Below are positions 6,305 through 15,379 of a DNA stretch of 64,000 nt, piece by piece. Below the pieces are notes generated by a model. The model did not search any database and was not told the origin of the DNA. It saw only the letters and a list, made by a program, of their open reading frames with translations. This stretch comes from Escherichia coli (lineage in GTDB: Bacteria; Pseudomonadota; Gammaproteobacteria; Enterobacterales; Enterobacteriaceae). The position numbers were made by a program, and so were the translations under genes. The stretch is from assembly GCF_030013205.1 (NCBI RefSeq), contig NZ_CP122648.1, one strand, 5' to 3'. The stretch's first letter is position 1. Each line of letters opens with the position of its first letter.

Positions 6305-6333
6305 TTTACAACGCGTGCGCTGGACATTACCAT
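6305..6333 (+). promoter_or_regulatory. Candidate sigma70 promoter, possibly the displaced native thiM promoter
   Basis: TTTACA (6305-6310), a 17-bp spacer, then TACCAT (6328-6333), about 30 bp upstream of the left TPP-aptamer copy. Confidence 0.35.
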
Positions 6334-6360
6334 CCTCCTCTGCGATTTATCATCGCAATC

Positions 6361-6437
6361 AAACGACTCGGGGTGCCCTTCTGCGTGAAGGCTGAGAAAT
6401 ACCCGTATCACCTGATCTGGATAATGCCAGCGTAGGG
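6361..6437 (+). repeat. Left copy of the 77-bp direct repeat: TPP riboswitch aptamer fragment (putative attL)
   Basis: Identical over 77 bp to 15251-15327. The sequence AAACGACTCGGGGTGCCCTTCTGCGTGAAGGCTGAGAAATACCCGTATCACCTGATCTGGATAATGCCAGCGTAGGG is the thiM THI-box aptamer. Confidence 0.9.
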
Positions 6438-6520
6438 GGCCAAAATAGTCTTGAAAATTATGTGGTTGTATCTCTTTTTGACCATAAATCATGCTGTTAA
6501 GGTACAAAAAGGGGTCGTTT

Positions 6521-7828
6521 ATGAGGTCAAGAACTCTCCCATACACATTTCAGCGAAACGGTAATTACTATCTACAAATCCGGCTTTCGGATGGTCGGAT
6601 ATACAAAAAATCACTTTTTACTGACAGTTATCGCGAAGCATCGGCGTTGATGATTGGCCTTACTCCGCACATTCCTTTCGTTAAATCACTCGCTACTCCG
6701 TTGCCGCAATTTAATAAGTTTGTTTCAAACTTGATCGCTTCGTCACGTAACGTAATGATTCCGTTGCCACTCCCTCAGCAATTGAACAATATTTCTAAAG
6801 AAGTTTTGCAGCTTCAACCACCAGCCAAACCGGAAAAGGTGCTAACACTTGCTGATGCGTGGGCTATGTACAAGGAGGAAAGAGGTCGAAATTGGACAAA
6901 ATCGATCTCAATGGCAAATGAGCGTTATATGGAGGTATTGCTTGTTGTCTTGGGAAAAGAAACAGACGTAACGGCAATCACCAAACAAGATATTAAGCGA
7001 GTAATGGAAACTGTCGAAAACTTACCAAAGCGTGTAGTGCAACCGTATAGGTCAATGACTATTCAGCAACTAATCGAATGTGATGATGTGCTGCCAGAGG
7101 ATTTAGTTGGTGCTGAGGCTGTACATAAGCACCTTAAAATCTACAAATCGTTATTCAAAACATTTCTGACTGAAAACAAAGATATTCTATCTAAGTCTCC
7201 GACTGATGGAATAGTAGCGGCACCATCCAAAGCTAGGTTTGGTGCATACAGTGCAGCAGAAATGAAAAAATTTGTAGGATGGGCACTAAAGCAGCCTGAT
7301 GGATGGCAGAAGTGGATCACTTTGTTGTTGGCGTACACAGGAGCCAGAAGAGGTGAGATTGCTAAACTGGAGAAGTCGCAGATCAAATTTGATGAAGATA
7401 GCCAGCGGCACTATCTTCTGATCGCGGAAAGAAGGCTGGGTAAAACTGAGAATGCTACAAGACAGGTAGTGATTCATCCCAAACTGATTGAGTGGGGGTT
7501 TCTGGATTTTGTTAACCGCCAATGGAAAGAGAAAATCTTTTCGGAAGTCTCAGGTCGAAATATGTCAAAGATAGGTAAAGTTCTTTCAGATGTTCGTGAT
7601 CAGCTTGATATTCCTTATCTTGATGATTATGGGCAGCGGCGCTTGGTGCATAGTTTCCGGCATACTATGATTTCTACTTGTTTAGCTGGTTGGGTGAGTA
7701 ATTTGGCGCATCTGCAACAGGTGGTAGGTCATGAGAAAAGCGGTTTAGGGATTACCAGACGCTATTTGCACTCTTTTCCTTTACGTTCAATTTGTTACGT
7801 GATTGATGGTTTGGACTGGTTAAATTGA
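6521..7828 (+). CDS. Tyrosine recombinase / phage-type integrase
   Basis: ATG 6521 with SD AAGGGG (6509-6514). C-terminal catalytic residues are visible: ARRGE (Arg), HSFRH (His-x-x-Arg), GHEK (His), RRYLH (Tyr). The track start at 6491 adds 10 aa. Confidence 0.9.
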   Translation: MRSRTLPYTFQRNGNYYLQIRLSDGRIYKKSLFTDSYREASALMIGLTPHIPFVKSLATPLPQFNKFVSNLIASSRNVMIPLPLPQQLNNISKEVLQLQPPAKPEKVLTLADAWAMYKEERGRNWTKSISMANERYMEVLLVVLGKETDVTAITKQDIKRVMETVENLPKRVVQPYRSMTIQQLIECDDVLPEDLVGAEAVHKHLKIYKSLFKTFLTENKDILSKSPTDGIVAAPSKARFGAYSAAEMKKFVGWALKQPDGWQKWITLLLAYTGARRGEIAKLEKSQIKFDEDSQRHYLLIAERRLGKTENATRQVVIHPKLIEWGFLDFVNRQWKEKIFSEVSGRNMSKIGKVLSDVRDQLDIPYLDDYGQRRLVHSFRHTMISTCLAGWVSNLAHLQQVVGHEKSGLGITRRYLHSFPLRSICYVIDGLDWLN

Positions 7829-7927
7829 TGTGAGCCTCGTGAGAAAGGGAATAAATAGAGAAAATCAAGTTGTTACCTCATTGGCAGGGGATATAATGAC
7901 CATATTGTCATCTTGAGGAACAAAAGT

Positions 7928-9499
7928 ATGGTTGCTCGTTCTAACCTTGTAAATTTAGATGCACTGATTAAGCGTGCTGATTTAGGTTTAAAGATCCAAG
8001 ATAACTCTTCATTTGAAACGCTAAACAGTATTCCTGCAAGAGAATTGAAATCAGGAAGTGGAATTGCTGCGCTTCTGAGAAAACCAGATTTCCAGCGTGA
8101 AACAAATCATTGGGGGCCTGAGCAGGTTGTATCGCTTCTCGAATGCTACATCAATGGTGATTTGATACCTTCCGTTATTCTTTGGCGGTCTTCAACCCAT
8201 CTTTTTGTGATCGATGGTGGTCATCGTTTAAGTGCGTTACGTGCTTGGGTTGAAGATGATTATGGCGACGGTCATATATCCCATCAACTTTTTGGGCATG
8301 ATATTCCTCGTGAACAACGCCGCGCTGCAGATAGAACGAGAAAGCTTGTGAAGGAGAGGGTCGGTAGCTGGGAATATTATCAGAAGTTGCTTGCCGATGA
8401 TGCTTCATTGACCGAGGAACAGCAGAGAAGAATCAGCGTATTAACATCTCGTGGAATCTCAGTCCAATGGGTAGTGGGTGATGTAGATAAGGCAGAAACT
8501 TCATTTTTTAACATCAATATGAAGGGAACTCCTCTTGATGCTATCGAAGAGATGCTTCTAAAAAATCGCAAGAAAAGTATTCCGATAGCAACCCGAGCAA
8601 TTATTCGTGCCGGTAGAGGTCATCGCTATTGGTCGGGGTTTGATCAGAGCATTGCCCAGCAACTTGAAGATAAATCTGCAAAGCTGCATCGTTTGCTGTT
8701 CGAACCTGAAGTTGATCGCCCTATTAAAACTCTTGATCTTCCATTAGGCGGTTCTAGGGGGGTCAGGACAGCGATCCAAGTTTTGAAAGATTTCTTACTG
8801 ATCACTGATTGCAACCAGAATGGTGTTTTGAAAAAAATCGAAGCCTACCCTGATGATGCGTCGGGTGCTGATACGTTAAGAATCCTTTCCAAAGCCACAT
8901 CATTAAGCAATAGAATTACAGGCAATGGCGATGGTAGCTTGGGGCTTCATCCAGCGATTTATTTTTATGGTCCGACTGGAATCCACTCAACGCCAATGTT
9001 TCTAGGAACTGTGCTACTGGTGGCAAAACAACTCTCTAACAATAATGGTCAATTCTTTAAAGACTTCACAACAATCAGATCTAGGCTTGAGAGAATAATG
9101 ATCGAATTTAAGGACTTGATCGCAATGATAGTACAAAAACCAGGTAGTAATGTCCGAGTGGCTCGCTACTGTGATTTTTTAAATGCGGTGATCAAATCAC
9201 TCAAGCAGGGAGAGAATATTGATGAGAGTAAGCTTATCGAGCTGGCCGAATTGGAGGGGAGAATACTCTCTGGAGATTTTAAGAGAACATCAGCAAAAAT
9301 CAGCGATGAACAAAAAAGTAAGGTGTTCATTGACGTGGCTCTGCGCAACGCTTTGAAATGTCCGATTTGCCAAGGTTACCTTGATACTGAAAAGTCAGTT
9401 TCTTATGATCATATCGTACGTGTCCGTGAGGGAGGAGATGGTAATTCTGACAATGTACAGTTGACACACCCTTACTGTAACCAGTCAGTGAAGTGTTAA
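7928..9499 (+). CDS. DUF262/ParB-like (DGQHR-type) N-terminal domain fused to a C-terminal zinc-ribbon HNH nuclease; candidate defence nuclease
   Basis: ATG 7928 with SD GAGGA. Motifs: KPDFQRE, VIDGGHRLSALRAW, FFNINMKGTPL. C-terminal sequence: CPICQGYLDTEKSVSYDHIVRVREGGDGNSDNVQLTHPYCN. The track start at 7913 is a TTG. Confidence 0.8.
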   Translation: MVARSNLVNLDALIKRADLGLKIQDNSSFETLNSIPARELKSGSGIAALLRKPDFQRETNHWGPEQVVSLLECYINGDLIPSVILWRSSTHLFVIDGGHRLSALRAWVEDDYGDGHISHQLFGHDIPREQRRAADRTRKLVKERVGSWEYYQKLLADDASLTEEQQRRISVLTSRGISVQWVVGDVDKAETSFFNINMKGTPLDAIEEMLLKNRKKSIPIATRAIIRAGRGHRYWSGFDQSIAQQLEDKSAKLHRLLFEPEVDRPIKTLDLPLGGSRGVRTAIQVLKDFLLITDCNQNGVLKKIEAYPDDASGADTLRILSKATSLSNRITGNGDGSLGLHPAIYFYGPTGIHSTPMFLGTVLLVAKQLSNNNGQFFKDFTTIRSRLERIMIEFKDLIAMIVQKPGSNVRVARYCDFLNAVIKSLKQGENIDESKLIELAELEGRILSGDFKRTSAKISDEQKSKVFIDVALRNALKCPICQGYLDTEKSVSYDHIVRVREGGDGNSDNVQLTHPYCNQSVKC

Positions 9500-9567
9500 A
9501 ATCACGTTTCACTTTTCGTTGTCATTTGTATCGAACGTTTTTGAGAAAGGGCAGGATTGCGAGCGAG

Positions 9568-9887: not shown

Positions 9888-10235
9888 TTAAATTTCAGAA
9901 CATAGGCTAAGCGTATAGACAGCAGTTTGCCCATCATTGTTAGTCGGTCTCATAACGAAAACAGGCTGACTCCCATTATCAATGTATGTGACTGCAACCC
10001 CTCCATCAGGTGTGGCATACATTTTTGCGATGCTTTTTTGACCTATAAAATCAAGTCTCCAAGTCTTACCACCAAGATGTATTGTCATTTTTTTATCTTG
10101 TATATCAAAAGTTGAATCTACAGAAACTTTCTGACTTCCCGAGTCAATATGACCTTCCTGTATTGCTTTACAGGAAAAGGTTGTGGCGTGGCCCATCACT
10201 GGAATTAACAAAGCGGCAAATACTAGTTTTTTCAT
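9888..10235 (-). CDS. Small exported (periplasmic) protein of unknown function
   Basis: ATG 10235 preceded by GGGAGA. Sec signal peptide MKKLVFAALLIPVMGHA; the mature part looks beta-rich with one Cys near each end. The track ORF has a 19-aa upstream extension. Confidence 0.7.
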   Translation of the reverse strand: MKKLVFAALLIPVMGHATTFSCKAIQEGHIDSGSQKVSVDSTFDIQDKKMTIHLGGKTWRLDFIGQKSIAKMYATPDGGVAVTYIDNGSQPVFVMRPTNNDGQTAVYTLSLCSEI

Positions 10236-10345
10236 TTGTCTCCCTTGATGTGTCAAATGGATGGTGATGCTAATAATACATGATTGATTCAAAATGTCAC
10301 GATTAGTGCGTGGTTAATTGGTGCGTCAAATTGCATCTTTGTGCC

Positions 10346-10810
10346 ATGCGAAAGAATCTGAGATACCTTTTTGGACAACGAGTAAAAGAGTTCCGTATAG
10401 CTATTGGCTTAAGCCAAGAGGCCTTTGCAGATCGGTGTGGTTTTGCTCGTAGTTATATGAGTCGAATTGAGCGTGGTTGCTCTAATGCATCTCTTGATGC
10501 AATTGAGGTTCTGGCTGACGCTTTGCGTATTGAGCCTTGGCAGTTACTAGCTTCTGATTCAAGGAAAACTGATGATCAGGAGGTACTTGTTCCTTATGCT
10601 GCAGATGGGTCGTGTTTTCATCCAGGATTGGCAAGTACTCGCGATGGTTCGTTTAGAGTAGGGGAAAAATCAGCCCAGAAACGTTTCAGTTCGTTCAATG
10701 ACGCTCTCGAATACCTTCGTGGAATGGAAACCGCGAAGTGGCGTAGGCCTAATGCTAGTGGTAATTGGGGAATTGTATCTGCGGTTAAATGGGATCGACT
10801 GAATCAATAA
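10346..10810 (+). CDS. XRE/Cro-family HTH regulator with an uncharacterised C-terminal domain
   Basis: The sequence MRKNLRYLFGQRVKEFRIAIGLSQEAFADRCGFARSYMSRIERG is a classic XRE HTH. About 85 aa of C-terminal sequence are unassigned. Divergent from the 10235 gene. Confidence 0.8.
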   Translation: MRKNLRYLFGQRVKEFRIAIGLSQEAFADRCGFARSYMSRIERGCSNASLDAIEVLADALRIEPWQLLASDSRKTDDQEVLVPYAADGSCFHPGLASTRDGSFRVGEKSAQKRFSSFNDALEYLRGMETAKWRRPNASGNWGIVSAVKWDRLNQ

Positions 10811-10976
10811 GATATCAGTAATTTTCGGGCCACTCCACAAGGCAATAAGTGGCTTAGTGGTGATTATCGAAGGGGAATACAAGCGAGCACCTAGGCACCA
10901 TTGCAAGAACCGCTCAACGCTGAGATCAGCAAGCCCCGATTTCTGCCGACCGTCCCTGTCAAATATCAAGGAGGCA

Positions 10977-11516
10977 TTACGCCTCCTCTTCTTCCTTCTT
11001 AATTCGCTGTACCGTCGAAGGAGCAACATTAAAGATCTCGGCGGTTTTACGCACTGACACGCCATCAGAAAGGGCTTTCTTTATACCTTCTCGATCCACT
11101 GCCTTACCTTTACCACGCTTTCTAGGATTGACGGCTTGCGCTTCTCGTTTACGTTCTAACATCAGTTCACGTTCACACGTTGCCACTGCCGACAACATAG
11201 TAAGCATCATTTTTCCCATCGCGCTTGTAATGTCTGCAATGATCCCTTCTTTGTGAAAGCGAACAATTACACCACGATTATTAAGTTGTTCCACTAAGGC
11301 AAGAATGTCTAAGGTGTTACGCCCTAAACGATCAAGAGAGTGGACGTGTAAGGTGTCGCCTTCTCTCAGATAGGCTAAACACGCTTGTAAGCCTGGGCGG
11401 TTAGTGTCTTTACCAGACAGCTTATCTTCAAAGACTTTGTCGAGAGTTAGTCCTGCAAGCTGGCGATCAGTATTTTGATCTACAGTGCTCACACGCTTAT
11501 AGCCGATATTGCTCAT
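10977..11516 (-). CDS. Serine recombinase (resolvase/invertase family)
   Basis: MSNIGYKRVSTVDQNTDRQ carries the catalytic Ser motif, and there is a C-terminal HTH (VRKTAEIFNVAPSTVQRI). 179 aa from ATG 11516. Confidence 0.9.
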   Translation of the reverse strand: MSNIGYKRVSTVDQNTDRQLAGLTLDKVFEDKLSGKDTNRPGLQACLAYLREGDTLHVHSLDRLGRNTLDILALVEQLNNRGVIVRFHKEGIIADITSAMGKMMLTMLSAVATCERELMLERKREAQAVNPRKRGKGKAVDREGIKKALSDGVSVRKTAEIFNVAPSTVQRIKKEEEEA

Positions 11517-11529
11517 AAAATCCCCTTGA

Positions 11530-11654
11530 TGTATCGATTTGGCACCACTCCAATGCAAATGAGTGTGTTGTATTCATTTGGTCTGTTTCAAGCCTTATGG
11601 ATACGGAATATTACACGATTTAGCTGTATTCATTTGGTATGCCTAATGGATACG
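11530..11654. promoter_or_regulatory. Putative res site (2-3 imperfect inverted-repeat subsites) upstream of the resolvase gene
   Basis: TGTATTCAT (11569-11577) with ATGGATACG (11597-11605), and TGTATTCAT (11625-11633) with ATGGATACG (11646-11654), at different spacings. A weaker third half-site TGTATCGAT lies at 11530-11538. Confidence 0.45.
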
Positions 11655-12165
11655 CAGGGGGATAGATTAAATGGTGTTCTGTTTATACAGGTTTATTTGT
11701 TAGATCAACAAGTTGGCATTTCTAAACAGATGTTTGAACGTTGCCAAATGCCTTGACAACACAAGAAAATGGCTTGCTATGAACGCATTACACGAAATAA
11801 GGCTATAAAAACAAAATAAATTTTAAAATTTGCACAAAAACGAGAAAACTCGTTCGACAAATAATAGATTGGTTTTTAATCGACAATTTCTGACAATTTC
11901 TGATGGTGCTCTGTAAACCGCATTACACAAGGCTTTGCGAAAGTGATGTAAAAGTGAAGAAAGTTAACATTGCACTTTGAAGCCATTTTTCATTGGATTT
12001 TTTAGTAGGGAATTACACAGGGAATAGAGAGCATTATTCTATGATTTACACAGGGAATATAGGGGATTATGGCACACACATAGAAAGGCATTACACAGAG
12101 TGAGTGCTATGTGATGATTGGTAGTAACGGTAGGTCACTGTGAGCTACCCCCCACAGAATTCTGT

Positions 12166-12286
12166 TACCCCTATCAAGTCTAACAGGGGTTTATAAAGAA
12201 TAATAAACCGATGATACCCCTATCAATATTGATACCCCTATTAGCTTTGATATGACTACCCCTATCAAAACTGATACCCGATAAGA
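12166..12286 (+). repeat. Array of five direct repeats (TGA)TACCCCTATCAA followed by an AT-rich stretch (ori-like iterons plus DUE)
   Basis: TACCCCTATCAA at 12166, 12215 and 12257. Variants TACCCCTATTAG at 12233 and TACCCGATAAGA at 12275. An AT-rich run follows at about 12281-12340. Confidence 0.7.
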
Positions 12287-12440
12287 ATAAGTTAATAAGA
12301 ATAATTAAATAATATTCTTTATATCTATATATATGATCTTTTTGCCTTCCGGCGTTAGCTTCACTCTCTGGCAAGCAGCCTTACTCCGCTATCTTTGGGC
12401 TTCGTGGCTGGCCCGTTCCGCTCACACCGAAAGCAAAGCG

Positions 12441-12518
12441 TTACTCTTCTTCGTGTAACTATCGTTGGCGGTAACGCCACACGAAGAAATACTATTGCGC
12501 TGTGCGCAGTAAGAGTAA
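12441..12518. other. GC-richer segment with nested inverted repeats (three-way-junction-like fold; function unknown)
   Basis: TTACTCTT (12441-12448) pairs with AAGAGTAA (12511-12518). CTTCGTGT (12449-12456) pairs with ACACGAAG (12479-12486). TGCGC (12496-12500) pairs with GCGCA (12504-12508). Confidence 0.3.
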
Positions 12519-13364
12519 TCACCTAACCAATCACCTGATTGCTTACGTGTTAACTCTCTCTAACTCTTAATTACCCTCCTACATTTAATAACTCTATTAT
12601 TCTCTGTAGTTGTGTAATTACTCGAAGAGAGAGCGGCTAAAGCTCAATTACACTCTGCTTTCCTCGTGTAATTTCACTAAGCCTCAATACAATTTCACTT
12701 CCTACATTCTGTAGTCGTGTAATAGTTTTCGGTGGGGAAAAGCCAGAGGCGACACCGAAAGAAAATTCTGATCTTATTAATCTTATCTATCTTAGTTAAT
12801 CTTCTTACTTACTTTATCTACTTTATTATTAATAATAGCTTTATAAGCTCTCTGTGTAGCTCTCTGACGCAAGAAACAGCATTCAGGAAGGGAATCACCT
12901 TAGAAAAGTGTTCTTTGCGTCATAATGTGTTTTATGAAGGATTCAGAGGTGTTTCATAACACAAGGTATAGAGGATATTTTAGTTAATTAAAAATAAGGG
13001 GGCTAAATGCTTCTCTAACAGCATTAAGCAGGGTAGAGAATGGAAATGCATTGCCTACGTATATATAAACTCACTACAAGGCTTTACAGAGCGTTTTATA
13101 AAGTAACTAATCTAAGAACTCTCTGTTTTATATCTATCATCATCTTTCCATCATCTAACAAATACAAAATAAGCCCCTTAAATAAGCCTCTGGCGAGCTA
13201 AACAGCCATTACATAAGGGAATGTATTTCTTTTATCAAAACTTCGTTAGAACGCGTTTTAGAGCGTTTTATACAATAAGGAAGAATAGGACCGTCCGCAA
13301 GAGCACGAATTGCTAAGAAAGAATGTAAACGCATGAAAAATATCAGATTTTTTATGAAAATATA

Positions 13365-13393
13365 TTGACAAATGTTTCTTTATATGTAATAAT
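13365..13393 (+). promoter_or_regulatory. Near-consensus sigma70 promoter of the Rep-like module
   Basis: TTGACA (13365-13370), a 17-bp spacer ending in TGT (extended -10 type), then AATAAT (13388-13393). Confidence 0.6.
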
Positions 13394-13444
13394 AGGTATT
13401 AGAGAGACAGAAAAACATTCTTCTCTAAATAATCAAAATCAATG

Positions 13445-13483
13445 CACTTTGAAGCCGTCAGGCTTGCAAGGTGTTTTTCTTTT
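13445..13483 (+). terminator. Intrinsic-terminator-like hairpin in the leader between the promoter and the first ORF (attenuator or short sRNA 3' end)
   Basis: CACTTTGAAGCC (13445-13456) pairs with GGCTTGCAAGGTG (13461-13473) with two mismatches, followed by TTTTTCTTTT. SD AAGGAG and ATG 13504 follow. Confidence 0.5.
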
Positions 13484-13503
13484 AACTGAATAAGGAGTTT
13501 TTT

Positions 13504-13692
13504 ATGAAATGGTTTACACCGGAACACGTCGTAGAGGCATTTAAAAAAGGTGAGCTAACACGACATCAAGTAGTAATGAATCGTAATATGGCAAGGAGTC
13601 GAGGTTATCCAGAGCGTGAAAAATGTTTCGATGCAGCACTAAAAATTATTGATAAATTAAGAAAAAATGAAAAAGGATCTGAAACAGAGTAA
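13504..13692 (+). CDS. Small basic protein of unknown function (62 aa)
   Basis: Strong SD AAGGAG 7 nt upstream of the ATG. First ORF after the promoter and leader. Confidence 0.6.
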   Translation: MKWFTPEHVVEAFKKGELTRHQVVMNRNMARSRGYPEREKCFDAALKIIDKLRKNEKGSETE

Positions 13693-13711
13693 AGAAGAGA
13701 AGGAGAAAACT

Positions 13712-13882
13712 ATGAGCGAAACTACAGAAAAGAAAAGACAACCACGCACTTGCTTTCATATTCCTGATGAAGTATTTCAGGTGTTGTTTAAAGAAGCCAG
13801 AAGTAAACGTATCACTGTTACAGATTACATTCTTGATATGTTGAAAAGAGAGGCTGAAACACTCTCAAATAAAAGCAAGTGA
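13712..13882 (+). CDS. Ribbon-helix-helix (CopG/Arc-like) DNA-binding protein (56 aa)
   Basis: ATG 13712 with SD GAAGGAG. RTCFHIPDEVFQVLFKEARSKRITVTDYILDMLKR fits the RHH strand-helix-helix pattern. The track start at 13667 overlaps the previous ORF. Confidence 0.6.
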   Translation: MSETTEKKRQPRTCFHIPDEVFQVLFKEARSKRITVTDYILDMLKREAETLSNKSK

Positions 13883-13936
13883 TTTTTATCACCATAGTAG
13901 CGCCGTAGAGCGTGATTACATCAAGGAGCTTTTTTA

Positions 13937-14599
13937 ATGATTAAACATACAAAACCTTTCTTAGGAATAGATTATGACTTACTAGCAATCACTTCCCTAG
14001 TGATTAACGGCAAAACAAAAGAAGTAAAACTACATCATAAGATCATTTATTCTTATTTGTTAAGTTTATCTGGCACATATCAAAAGGTAACACCATCTTT
14101 GAAAGGTATTGGTGAGCGGTTAGGAGTAGGTACAGATCAGACGGTACGCCGTCATATCAAAGATCTTGTTTCTTTTGGATGGTTGAAGATTGAGGAAAGG
14201 GCAGGTAGCACAAATGCTTATATTGTCCTTCCTTATGAACAAGAAGCCCAGACACAACAAGAAGCTACCGTTAAAGCTGTTCAGGAACAGCTTCCCCCTA
14301 CGGAAGATAATAAAGAGTTTTCTTTTGATGTTCTTGATGATTGGGATGCGCCTTTACCTTGGGAAATGGAAGAAACGCCATCTGATGAAAAGGTAGCTAA
14401 TGATAATGAGGAGGATGTGTTAGAGAATTTTGCCTCTCTTATCATCCAGGAGAAACACACAAGAACAGGAGGGGCATCATTTATAGAATTTGCAACATCG
14501 TTAGCCTGTAAGCACAGGATAAAGCTACCAAATGGTATTGAGGCATATTTTGCTAAGAAACATCCCAAAGTATATGAAGACTTTGATATTCCATTTTAA
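13937..14599 (+). CDS. Winged-HTH protein with an acidic C-terminal region; putative replication initiator / DNA-binding protein
   Basis: SD AAGGAG precedes the ATG. wHTH-like segment LKGIGERLGVGTDQTVRRHIKDLVSFGWLKIEERAGSTNAYIV, then an acidic tail (DDWDAPLPWEMEETPSDEKVANDNEEDV). It lies next to the iteron region. The CDS call is solid; the function is inferred. Confidence 0.6.
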   Translation: MIKHTKPFLGIDYDLLAITSLVINGKTKEVKLHHKIIYSYLLSLSGTYQKVTPSLKGIGERLGVGTDQTVRRHIKDLVSFGWLKIEERAGSTNAYIVLPYEQEAQTQQEATVKAVQEQLPPTEDNKEFSFDVLDDWDAPLPWEMEETPSDEKVANDNEEDVLENFASLIIQEKHTRTGGASFIEFATSLACKHRIKLPNGIEAYFAKKHPKVYEDFDIPF

Positions 14600-14794
14600 T
14601 AAGGAGGGTTATGATTCAATATTTAGTAAAAAATAAAGTAGAATTCATCTATTCCACTCTCTAAAAATCTATCTGTGTAATATAAAATGAAAACATTATG
14701 GTATTAGCTATGTATTGGTTATTGTTCTTTCTGGCCTTAGAAACATATGCAAGTAAGTCTGGAAAACGAAAGTAATATATTGATGATTTGTTTG

Positions 14795-15052
14795 TTATAA
14801 CTTCGTGGTGTCAAGTCCAGCAGTTTTGAGTCGCTCGGTAAGATTTCTCATTTTGCTGAACTCTGTACCAAAGCTGGCTTTAAGTCCTACACCTTCGCAA
14901 AACTCTTTTGCCGTGACGTTTTTCAGATGGTCAACATATTTGGTCATCTGGAGGTGCATTTCCATCGTTTGGCTATTTCGTGATGCGCTGCTAATGGCTT
15001 GCTTAATGTTCTCGTAGATCTGGGTTCTGTCATTGTTTATCCCACCTATCAA
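14795..15052 (-). CDS. Small hypothetical protein (85 aa from a TTG start; may start internally)
   Basis: Open frame at the right end of the island. The only full-length start is TTG; the first in-frame ATG gives 56 aa (MEMHLQMTKYVDHLKNVTAKEFCEGVGL...). Confidence 0.45.
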   Translation of the reverse strand: MIGGINNDRTQIYENIKQAISSASRNSQTMEMHLQMTKYVDHLKNVTAKEFCEGVGLKASFGTEFSKMRNLTERLKTAGLDTTKL

Positions 15053-15168: not shown

Positions 15169-15250
15169 CAGAGAAGAAGCAATTAATGGAGGCGAGCTTG
15201 CATCTGCAAGCCACTTCCCCTAAGCTGGCACAAAATATAGAGATTCAACC

Positions 15251-15379
15251 AAACGACTCGGGGTGCCCTTCTGCGTGAAGGCTGAGAAATACCCGTATCA
15301 CCTGATCTGGATAATGCCAGCGTAGGGAAGTCACGGACCACCAGGTCATTGCTTCTTCACGTTATGGCAGGAGCAAACT
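15251..15379 (+). promoter_or_regulatory. thiM TPP (THI-box) riboswitch: aptamer plus expression platform (right repeat copy, putative attR)
   Basis: The aptamer sequence matches the well-studied E. coli thiM riboswitch. It continues into AAGTCACGGACCACCAGGTCATTGCTTCTTCACGTTATGGCAGGAGCAAACT and the thiM ATG at 15380. Confidence 0.9.

Follow-up and report, generated by a model that had tools for sequence, protein, structure and literature searches.

A DUF262-HNH gene next to the integrase of an Escherichia coli island

The DNA analysed here is a stretch of 64,000 nucleotides (nt) of the Escherichia coli contig NZ_CP122648.1 (assembly GCF_030013205.1), referred to as the window. It contains an integrative island in which the gene following the integrase, at positions 7928-9499 of the plus strand, encodes a protein of 523 amino acids (aa) with an N-terminal DUF262 domain and a C-terminal HNH domain. 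An earlier interpretation made from the letters of the DNA (the sequence-only reading) had described a 523-aa open reading frame (ORF) directly after the integrase gene int and quoted peptide motifs from it. This description was accurate: the ORF comprises 523 codons without internal stops, begins 99 nt after the integrase, and its translation contains the quoted motifs. A sequence with 100% identity is present in NZ_CP128888.1, which has the coding sequence (CDS) annotated, and the product corresponds to RefSeq WP_021293132.1. The gene, its domains and its putative transcription signals were located as follows.

7928..9499, plus strand: DUF262-(helical middle domain)-HNH CDS, 523 aa (translation, Pfam, identity to WP_021293132.1)
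8075..8566, plus strand: DUF262/GmrSD_N, predicted ParB-like nucleoside triphosphatase (NTPase) domain, aa 50-213 (Pfam and motifs)
8567..9337, plus strand: conserved all-helical middle domain, aa ~214-470 (model and conserved motifs)
9359..9487, plus strand: zinc-ribbon HNH, aa 478-520, C478xxC481...D494-H495...N509...H514xxC517-N518 (Pfam, PHROG, Foldseek, conservation)
7870..7897, plus strand: promoter-like site TTGTTA-16-TATAAT in the gap between int and the nuclease gene (consensus scan, 10/12 matches; consensus only)
9487..9513, plus strand: terminator-like hairpin and T-run overlapping the nuclease stop codon (consensus match only)

Inspection of the sequence also revealed a putative GAGGA ribosome-binding site between the promoter-like site and the nuclease ATG. 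With its own promoter-like site, ribosome-binding site and terminator-like hairpin, the gene looks monocistronic, that is, its own transcription unit.

Domain architecture

The N-terminal domain is demonstrably DUF262. Pfam matched aa 50-213 to GmrSD_N/PF03235 (E=3.3e-12, 47.4 bits against a curated cutoff of 33.2), and both the QR and the FxxxN motif, as defined for DUF262 (PMC12137116), were found (FQR at aa 55-57, FxxxN at aa 193-197). F55-Q56-R57 and F193xxxN197 were invariant in the family alignment. The third motif, DGGHR at aa 96-100 (nt 8213-8227), has the family consensus DG(G/A)HR at D96-G-G-H-R100, in which the D, G and R of DGQQR are kept and QQ is replaced.

The C-terminus is demonstrably HNH and a predicted nuclease. 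The Pfam match of aa 478-520 to HNH/PF01844 was barely above threshold (E=1.5e-4, 22.3 bits against a cutoff of 21.4). Three PHROG HNH families also matched the protein (E 4.5e-6 to 8e-5), and the last ~63 aa of the structural model matched the Gme HNH nickase 4h9d (Foldseek, prob 0.99). In an alignment of 79 sequences reaching down to 23% identity, C478, C481, H495, H514 and C517 were invariant, and D494, N509 and N518 were conserved in at least 90%. The likely layout, as read from these residues, is a Cys2-His-Cys zinc site plus a catalytic D-H...N...N set.

No DUF1524 (PF07510) match was found in the 523-aa protein by Pfam, even at E<=1. Taken alone this negative is weak, since the archetypal BrxU of pEFER (L086:18711-20471) also yielded only GmrSD_N, and no DUF1524, in a like Pfam scan at E<=1e-3. 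The point that the nuclease differs from DUF1524 is carried by the motif, which reads D494-H495-I-V-R and lacks the Pro of (D/E)HxxP, and by hhalign, in which the comparison with BrxU gave no C-terminal alignment. The protein is therefore not a canonical DUF262+DUF1524 enzyme, as the sequence-only reading had held; no PF07510 and a DG(G/A)HR motif were found, and PADLOC 2.0 has no model for the DUF262-HNH family.

The region in between, aa ~214-470, had no match to any Pfam, NCBIfam or PADLOC family. It contains the invariant motifs GxGHxYWS (aa 229-236), TLDLPLxG (aa 268-275) and TGNxxGSLGLHPA (aa 331-343). When aa 205-523 were remodelled with a deeper alignment, the result was a confident helical model (predicted local distance difference test, pLDDT, 93.7; predicted template modelling score, pTM, 0.92) with some eleven helices and, after them, a small beta-beta-alpha unit. 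NsnA-C, GmrSD-M, SspE-M and DndB-C have been proposed to have in common a domain of eight helices that comes after DUF262 (PMC12065111). The fold of the protein was closest to BrxU and SspE.

The proposed arrangement of a DUF262 N-terminus, a long unmatched middle and a zinc-ribbon HNH was thus borne out by Pfam, PHROG, Foldseek and the alignment. Profile searches recovered GmrSD_N and HNH with Pfam, but no DUF1524, and the sole PADLOC match was a partial one to NsnA (aa 52-111, E 2e-5). The NCBIfam scan of the protein gave no match, and sequence searches of the PDB, whether started from the single protein or from the family profile, gave only a marginal match to a group II intron maturase HNH. 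PHROGs already includes the family as phrog_29172, 'unknown function' (E=4e-226).

Family size, distribution and prior cataloguing

Searching a library of 5.8 billion proteins at E<=1e-3 gave 2908 homologue matches, and the best 120 of these 2908 were all about 510-545 aa long and 56-97% identical. A representative library clustered at 50% identity yielded 1123 cluster representatives at E<=1e-3, of which 417 also passed E<=1e-30; among the matches listed there, nearly all non-fragments measured 510-560 aa. Homologues are carried by at least 536 species of the genome collection, with taxa among the Alpha-, Beta- and Gammaproteobacteria, Bacteroidota, Verrucomicrobiota, Acidobacteriota, Cyanobacteria and Planctomycetota as well as a Paceibacterota metagenome-assembled genome (MAG). 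Conservation spans the whole protein, including the unmatched middle, with a mean column identity of 68% in the family alignment. Judging from these matches, the DUF262-HNH proteins are a discrete, full-length family and not a chance combination.

The sequence-only reading could not assign the protein to any described family, and this part did not stand. Its RefSeq name is 'GmrSD restriction endonuclease domain-containing protein', and WP_021293132.1 is listed in the GmrSD cluster CLS_014 (14 members) in Supplementary Dataset 6 of PMC12373910 (Nat Commun 2025;16:7828). A paralogue from an E. coli P2-like prophage, WP_000146939.1, is a member of the same cluster (PMC12373910). In that study, all DUF262/ParB_n proteins of Enterobacteria were clustered, and single-gene ParB_n + (HNH or DUF1524) systems were described in addition to three two-gene systems. 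Representatives of all 15 groups were synthesized and tested on T-even phages; five additional systems were active against these phages, and three of the 15 groups were already known to be active (PMC12373910). In the dataset, CLS_014 is labelled by CDD only as DUF262 (PMC12373910).

The integrative island and its variable cargo slot

The E. coli chromosomal order is yehABCD-rcnBAR, island, thiMD-yegXWVUT. The island measures 8,890 bp from repeat to repeat and has a G+C content of 33-48%, compared with 53-57% across thiMD just downstream. Besides the nuclease gene it comprises the following features.

6356..6437, plus strand: attL, an 82-nt direct repeat within a thiamine pyrophosphate (TPP) riboswitch aptamer (6359-6454) (repeat search)
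6521..7828, plus strand: tyrosine integrase (Pfam Phage_integrase; phrog_1 integrase)
9888..10235, minus strand: 115-aa hypothetical protein with a signal-peptide-like N-terminus (phrog_35183, unknown function)
9888..15040: stretch of the island backbone that also contains two small ORFs
10346..10810, plus strand: XRE-type helix-turn-helix (HTH) protein
10977..11516, minus strand: serine recombinase/invertase (resolvase)
11517..13503: AT-rich 2-kb non-coding stretch with iteron-like repeats at about 12010-12280
13937..14599, plus strand: replication-initiator-like HTH_36 protein (phrog_270/428/391)
14795..15040, minus strand: HTH_73 protein
15246..15327, plus strand: attR, the second 82-nt copy, 99% identical, in the thiM TPP riboswitch (15249-15345) (repeat search, annotation)

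Both attachment (att) repeats lie in full-length TPP aptamers, scoring 61.9 bits (6359-6454) and 71.2 bits (15249-15345). Of 5426 complete E. coli genomes, 221 have a relative of the integrase at this rcnR/thiM site, and only 39-40 of these 221 carry the DUF262-HNH gene. Three sister islands with integrases 76-98% identical to the one in the window were inspected, from CREC-544, USMARC-49610 and A23. In CREC-544 (integrase 98%) the position after the integrase is occupied by a 241-aa McrA-like HNH protein (L087:12467-13192), matched by the PADLOC model for type IV methyl-directed restriction enzymes, mREase_IV (E 1.3e-23). In USMARC-49610 (integrase 97%) it holds an unrelated 316-aa hypothetical protein without a family match (WP_001007828.1, L088:12734-13684), itself a candidate defence gene. 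In A23 (integrase 76%) small ORFs and an mREase_IV-like HNH protein occupy the slot (L089:12438-18016), and an AbiU/AIPR protein is located deeper inside the island.

The backbone, in contrast to the cargo, is conserved. The 115-aa gene, the XRE HTH gene, the resolvase gene and an HTH-like gene recur in CREC-544 and, partly disrupted by IS3, in USMARC-49610, and in both the 115-aa hypothetical protein is annotated at the same position; in A23 the resolvase was the only backbone gene within the stretch fetched. Integrase, att site and backbone are thus retained and the same slot holds different cargo, which is what a variable defence hotspot next to the integrase looks like. This agrees with the proposal of the sequence-only reading that the gene is the first cargo of an integrative island; the 82-nt att repeats now mark the limits of this island.

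Further observations concern the island itself. The tRNA scan of the window was negative, which ruled out a tRNA-targeting island. Iteron-like direct repeats are located at 12010-12070 and 12163-12279 and consist of TACCCCTATCAA-type units plus a 28-nt pair, not far from the replication-initiator-like HTH_36 gene; once excised, the island may be able to replicate in the manner of a satellite or of an integrative mobilizable element. The insertion splits the thiMD leader, so that a promoter-like site (6305-6333) and a TPP aptamer are now directly upstream of int, and thiM retains a complete aptamer but lies 8.9 kb away from its original upstream region. Because of this split, expression of the integrase might be responsive to thiamine, and thiMD may rely on a promoter carried by the island.

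Genomic neighbourhoods of homologues

To place the family in context, neighbourhoods were surveyed at 80 loci from different species, and 287 flanking proteins were pooled for Pfam and PADLOC scans. No neighbour family was conserved across the 80 loci, and no neighbour cluster occurred in more than eight of them. This supports the earlier single-gene assignment and indicates that the gene works alone. The largest neighbour cluster was a C5 cytosine methyltransferase, found within four genes of the homologue at 8/80 loci, several of which also had EcoRII-C and Vsr.

Several homologues lie on mobile elements or beside defence genes. In the P2-like Burkholderia phage KL3, gp44 (57.7% identical) has an EcoRII-C/Vsr/Dcm module on one side and the portal gene on the other. 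The KL3 gp44-gp47 block (L082:2881-7569) comprises the homologue together with EcoRII-C, Vsr and a Dcm-type methylase, and the methyltransferase/EcoRII-C/Vsr trio also flanks homologues in several beta-proteobacterial genomes (L060, L066, L067, L075). The E. coli paralogue WP_000146939.1 (52% identical) lies between gpD and ogr of its P2-like prophage, and the gpD-homologue-ogr arrangement was also found in Salmonella Newport. The filamentous prophage Pf8 (NC_073756.1 gp01, L084:4992-6530) encodes a full-length homologue (38% identical) at its excisionase/toxin-antitoxin end; annotated as 'putative repressor C protein', it is probably a misannotated defence-type nuclease. On many Acinetobacter plasmids a 551-aa full-length homologue, only 24% identical, adjoins BREX-1. 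Its homology is supported by hhalign (prob 99.5, E 7e-23, 448 columns), and all motifs are kept. On other plasmids the 551-aa homologue is found inside the BREX cluster (PMC10117892).

These contexts also bear on an alternative in which the protein serves the mobile element, either by excluding plasmids, conjugative DNA or satellites, as Osa does, or as a selfish or homing HNH nuclease. The fertility inhibitor Osa is a ParB/Srx-fold ATPase/DNase (PMC4619093). The carriers are diverse (integrative island, P2-like phages, filamentous Pf prophage, plasmids), and the gene is a single gene with variable flanks. In addition, the module of int and nuclease gene recurs with 88-91% nt identity beside TPP riboswitch copies, the same att site, in three further taxa of enterobacteria, namely Enterobacter nematophilus, Franconibacter pulveris and an uncultured enterobacterium. 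Homing HNH enzymes, however, are usually small, reside in introns or phage genes and are not fused to a ParB-like NTPase. Nor did a conserved insertion signature or target-site duplication come to light, although no search aimed at one was made. The exchange of the slot for recognized anti-phage genes in the sister islands and the adjacency to BREX and restriction-modification genes point to defence instead, which makes a role in the service of the element improbable.

A second alternative is a phosphorothioate-linked effector, or a DndB-like regulator, of a dnd/ssp-type system. DGGHR/DGAHR resembles the DGQHR of DndB-type domains, and SspE and DndI are DUF262-nuclease fusions (PMC11662687). 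Neither Pfam nor NCBIfam returned a DndB/DGQHR match, though, and no ssp/dnd modification genes were present in the island or among the recurrent neighbours at the 80 loci. The invariant HNH catalytic set argues that the protein is not a mere regulator. A DndB-like regulator and a dnd/ssp-linked role were both rejected on these grounds; this alternative is largely refuted and has very little probability left.

Proposed function

We consider it more likely than not that the DUF262-HNH protein is a defence nuclease that acts alone, is carried by mobile elements and has the build of GmrSD, BrxU and SspE. The cargo of the sister islands and the contexts of the homologues support the defence-nuclease reading proposed earlier, and it is from these that we infer an anti-phage function.

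In the mechanism that we propose, the protein would be expressed as its own transcription unit from the integrase-proximal defence slot. Its N-terminal ParB-like DUF262 domain would bind and hydrolyse a nucleoside triphosphate (NTP), the helical middle domain would probably contact DNA and relay the signal, and the C-terminal zinc-stabilized HNH domain (a His-Me finger) would nick or cut DNA. The ParB-like and middle domains together may read a feature of foreign DNA, by analogy most likely a hypermodified base, and NTP turnover may gate the HNH nuclease. Such gating of a His-Me nuclease by NTP hydrolysis is found in characterized relatives (PMC11662687, PMC10952713, PMC12137116). In SspE and DndI, hydrolysis alters the distance between the N- and C-terminal domains and thereby controls DNA binding or nicking (PMC11662687, PMC10952713), and the DndI Arg equivalent to that of DGxxR is needed for ATPase activity and defence (PMC11662687). 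In the present family the NTP motifs (QR, the Asp, Gly and Arg of DGxxR, FxxxN) are invariant except for the change of QQ to (G/A)H, which is compatible with NTPase activity of the protein.

A hypermodified base is our best guess for the trigger, based on the analogy with characterized systems. The E. coli host background contains Dam/Dcm methylation. Ordinary host methylation would be tolerated, and 5-methylcytosine (m5C) at Dcm-type sites and N6-methyladenine (m6A) are unlikely targets, because the gene coexists with Dam/Dcm and Dcm-type methylases occur at 8/80 loci. That the enzyme depends strictly on modification is, by the same analogy, a tentative proposal which we hold with some doubt.

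Several observations weigh against the reading as a GmrSD-like defence nuclease. The family keeps 45-65% identity across phyla (E. coli compared with Bacteroidota about 55%, with Acidobacteriota about 45%), well above published GmrSD subtypes, which are described as having 'virtually no similarity' outside DGQQR (PMC12373910). Such high conservation is odd, as it fits poorly with an arms-race enzyme facing injected inhibitors. The DGQQR motif itself, present in nearly 100% of strict GmrSD members, is DG(G/A)HR here. Aligned to BrxU by hhalign, the family matched over just 53 columns of the ParB core (QR, DGxxR; prob 82, E 1e-5), and its profile found no BrxU, SspE or DndI sequence in the PDB. 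A Foldseek search found no confident structural relative of the middle domain, only the HNH tail being matched. The immediate neighbours at the 80 loci were mostly ordinary and heterogeneous, and the pooled scans brought up no recurrent partner; the PADLOC lists were dominated by redundant methyltransferase models on the same few proteins. Finally, CLS_014 may be a group that is inactive on T-even phages, or it may be one of two clusters outside the 15 tested groups, given that PMC12373910 has 20 clusters for only 18 slots.

Part of this evidence would suit a defence nuclease of the same build that is independent of modification and senses another cue, such as a phage protein, the ends or the structure of DNA, or foreign DNA that is free or being replicated. 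Such an enzyme would either cut the DNA of the invader or attack that of the host as a toxin of abortive infection. The departure from the DGQQR of modification-dependent GmrSD enzymes and the distinct sequence of the middle domain are in line with it, and the high cross-phylum conservation suggests a conserved trigger from which an invader cannot escape; the family reaches phyla such as Acidobacteriota, Bacteroidota, Cyanobacteria and, with a MAG, Paceibacterota. DndI likewise cuts whatever the modification, which only releases it from self DNA (PMC11662687). On the other hand, all characterized DUF262-nuclease fusions sense DNA modification, namely glucosylated hydroxymethylcytosine (glc-hmC), hydroxymethylcytosine (hmC)/m5C, 7-deazaguanine or phosphorothioate. 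The slot in sister islands is also filled by a methyl-directed type IV-like HNH enzyme, and no partner immunity or antitoxin gene was found at the 80 loci. We therefore regard modification independence as unlikely.

The protein could also belong to a separate lineage of ParB-NTPase-gated nucleases, with the middle domain as a new sensor and a trigger outside the known GmrSD cues, one candidate being some conserved property of the invading DNA or of the way in which it replicates. A separate lineage with another trigger would explain why 45-65% identity is kept from E. coli to Bacteroidota and Acidobacteriota, unlike in the divergent GmrSD. To this we assign a small but real chance.

If the DUF262-HNH protein is an active defence nuclease, it would represent a compact, well-conserved single-gene nuclease present in at least 536 species of many phyla, whose carriers include satellite-like islands, prophages of the P2-like and filamentous kinds, and plasmids with BREX. 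Identification of its trigger would widen the range of DUF262 sensors beyond glc-hmC, hmC/m5C, 7-deazaguanine and phosphorothioate, and would reveal whether a ParB-like NTPase gates a classical zinc-ribbon HNH as it does DUF1524. The gene would also be relevant to host range in phage therapy of porcine enterotoxigenic E. coli (ETEC) and of the other E. coli lineages that carry it, which account for 39 of the 5426 complete genomes.

Comparison with known systems

Menshen NsnA, Dazbog and PD-T4-2 are DUF262 proteins without DUF1524; they share the DUF262 sensor with the present protein, in which the nuclease is fused in cis. A role as a component of Menshen (NsnABC) was rejected, as the NsnA model covers only aa 52-111 and no NsnB/NsnC-like conserved partners lie downstream of the homologues at the 80 loci. 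SspE and DndI are phosphorothioate-sensing DUF262+DUF1524 nickases, whereas the nuclease here is of another subtype and has no match to them at the sequence level. BrxU/GmrSD enzymes (Eco94GmrSD and CT596 GmrSD; DUF262+DUF1524) have a similar layout, but profile homology to BrxU stops at the ParB core.

McrA-like type IV HNH enzymes (mREase_IV) have the same PF01844-type HNH and occupy the identical integrase-proximal slot in sister islands. They differ in their size of 240 aa, in having a different N-terminal reader and in lacking a ParB-like NTPase domain.

The N-terminal DUF262/ParB-like domain is shared with strict GmrSD, defined as DUF262 + DUF1524 (PMC4619093, PMC12707154). Strict GmrSD has the (D/E)HxxP His-Me finger of DUF1524, whereas the present protein has a CxxC-type PF01844 HNH. 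In the broader definition given in PMC12373910, GmrSD comprises single genes with a pfam03235/COG1479 match and a fused His-Me/HNH nuclease, and both are found here. On sequence grounds, the protein is thus a member of the broad-sense GmrSD family that was already catalogued, and represents a divergent branch of that family rather than a new class.

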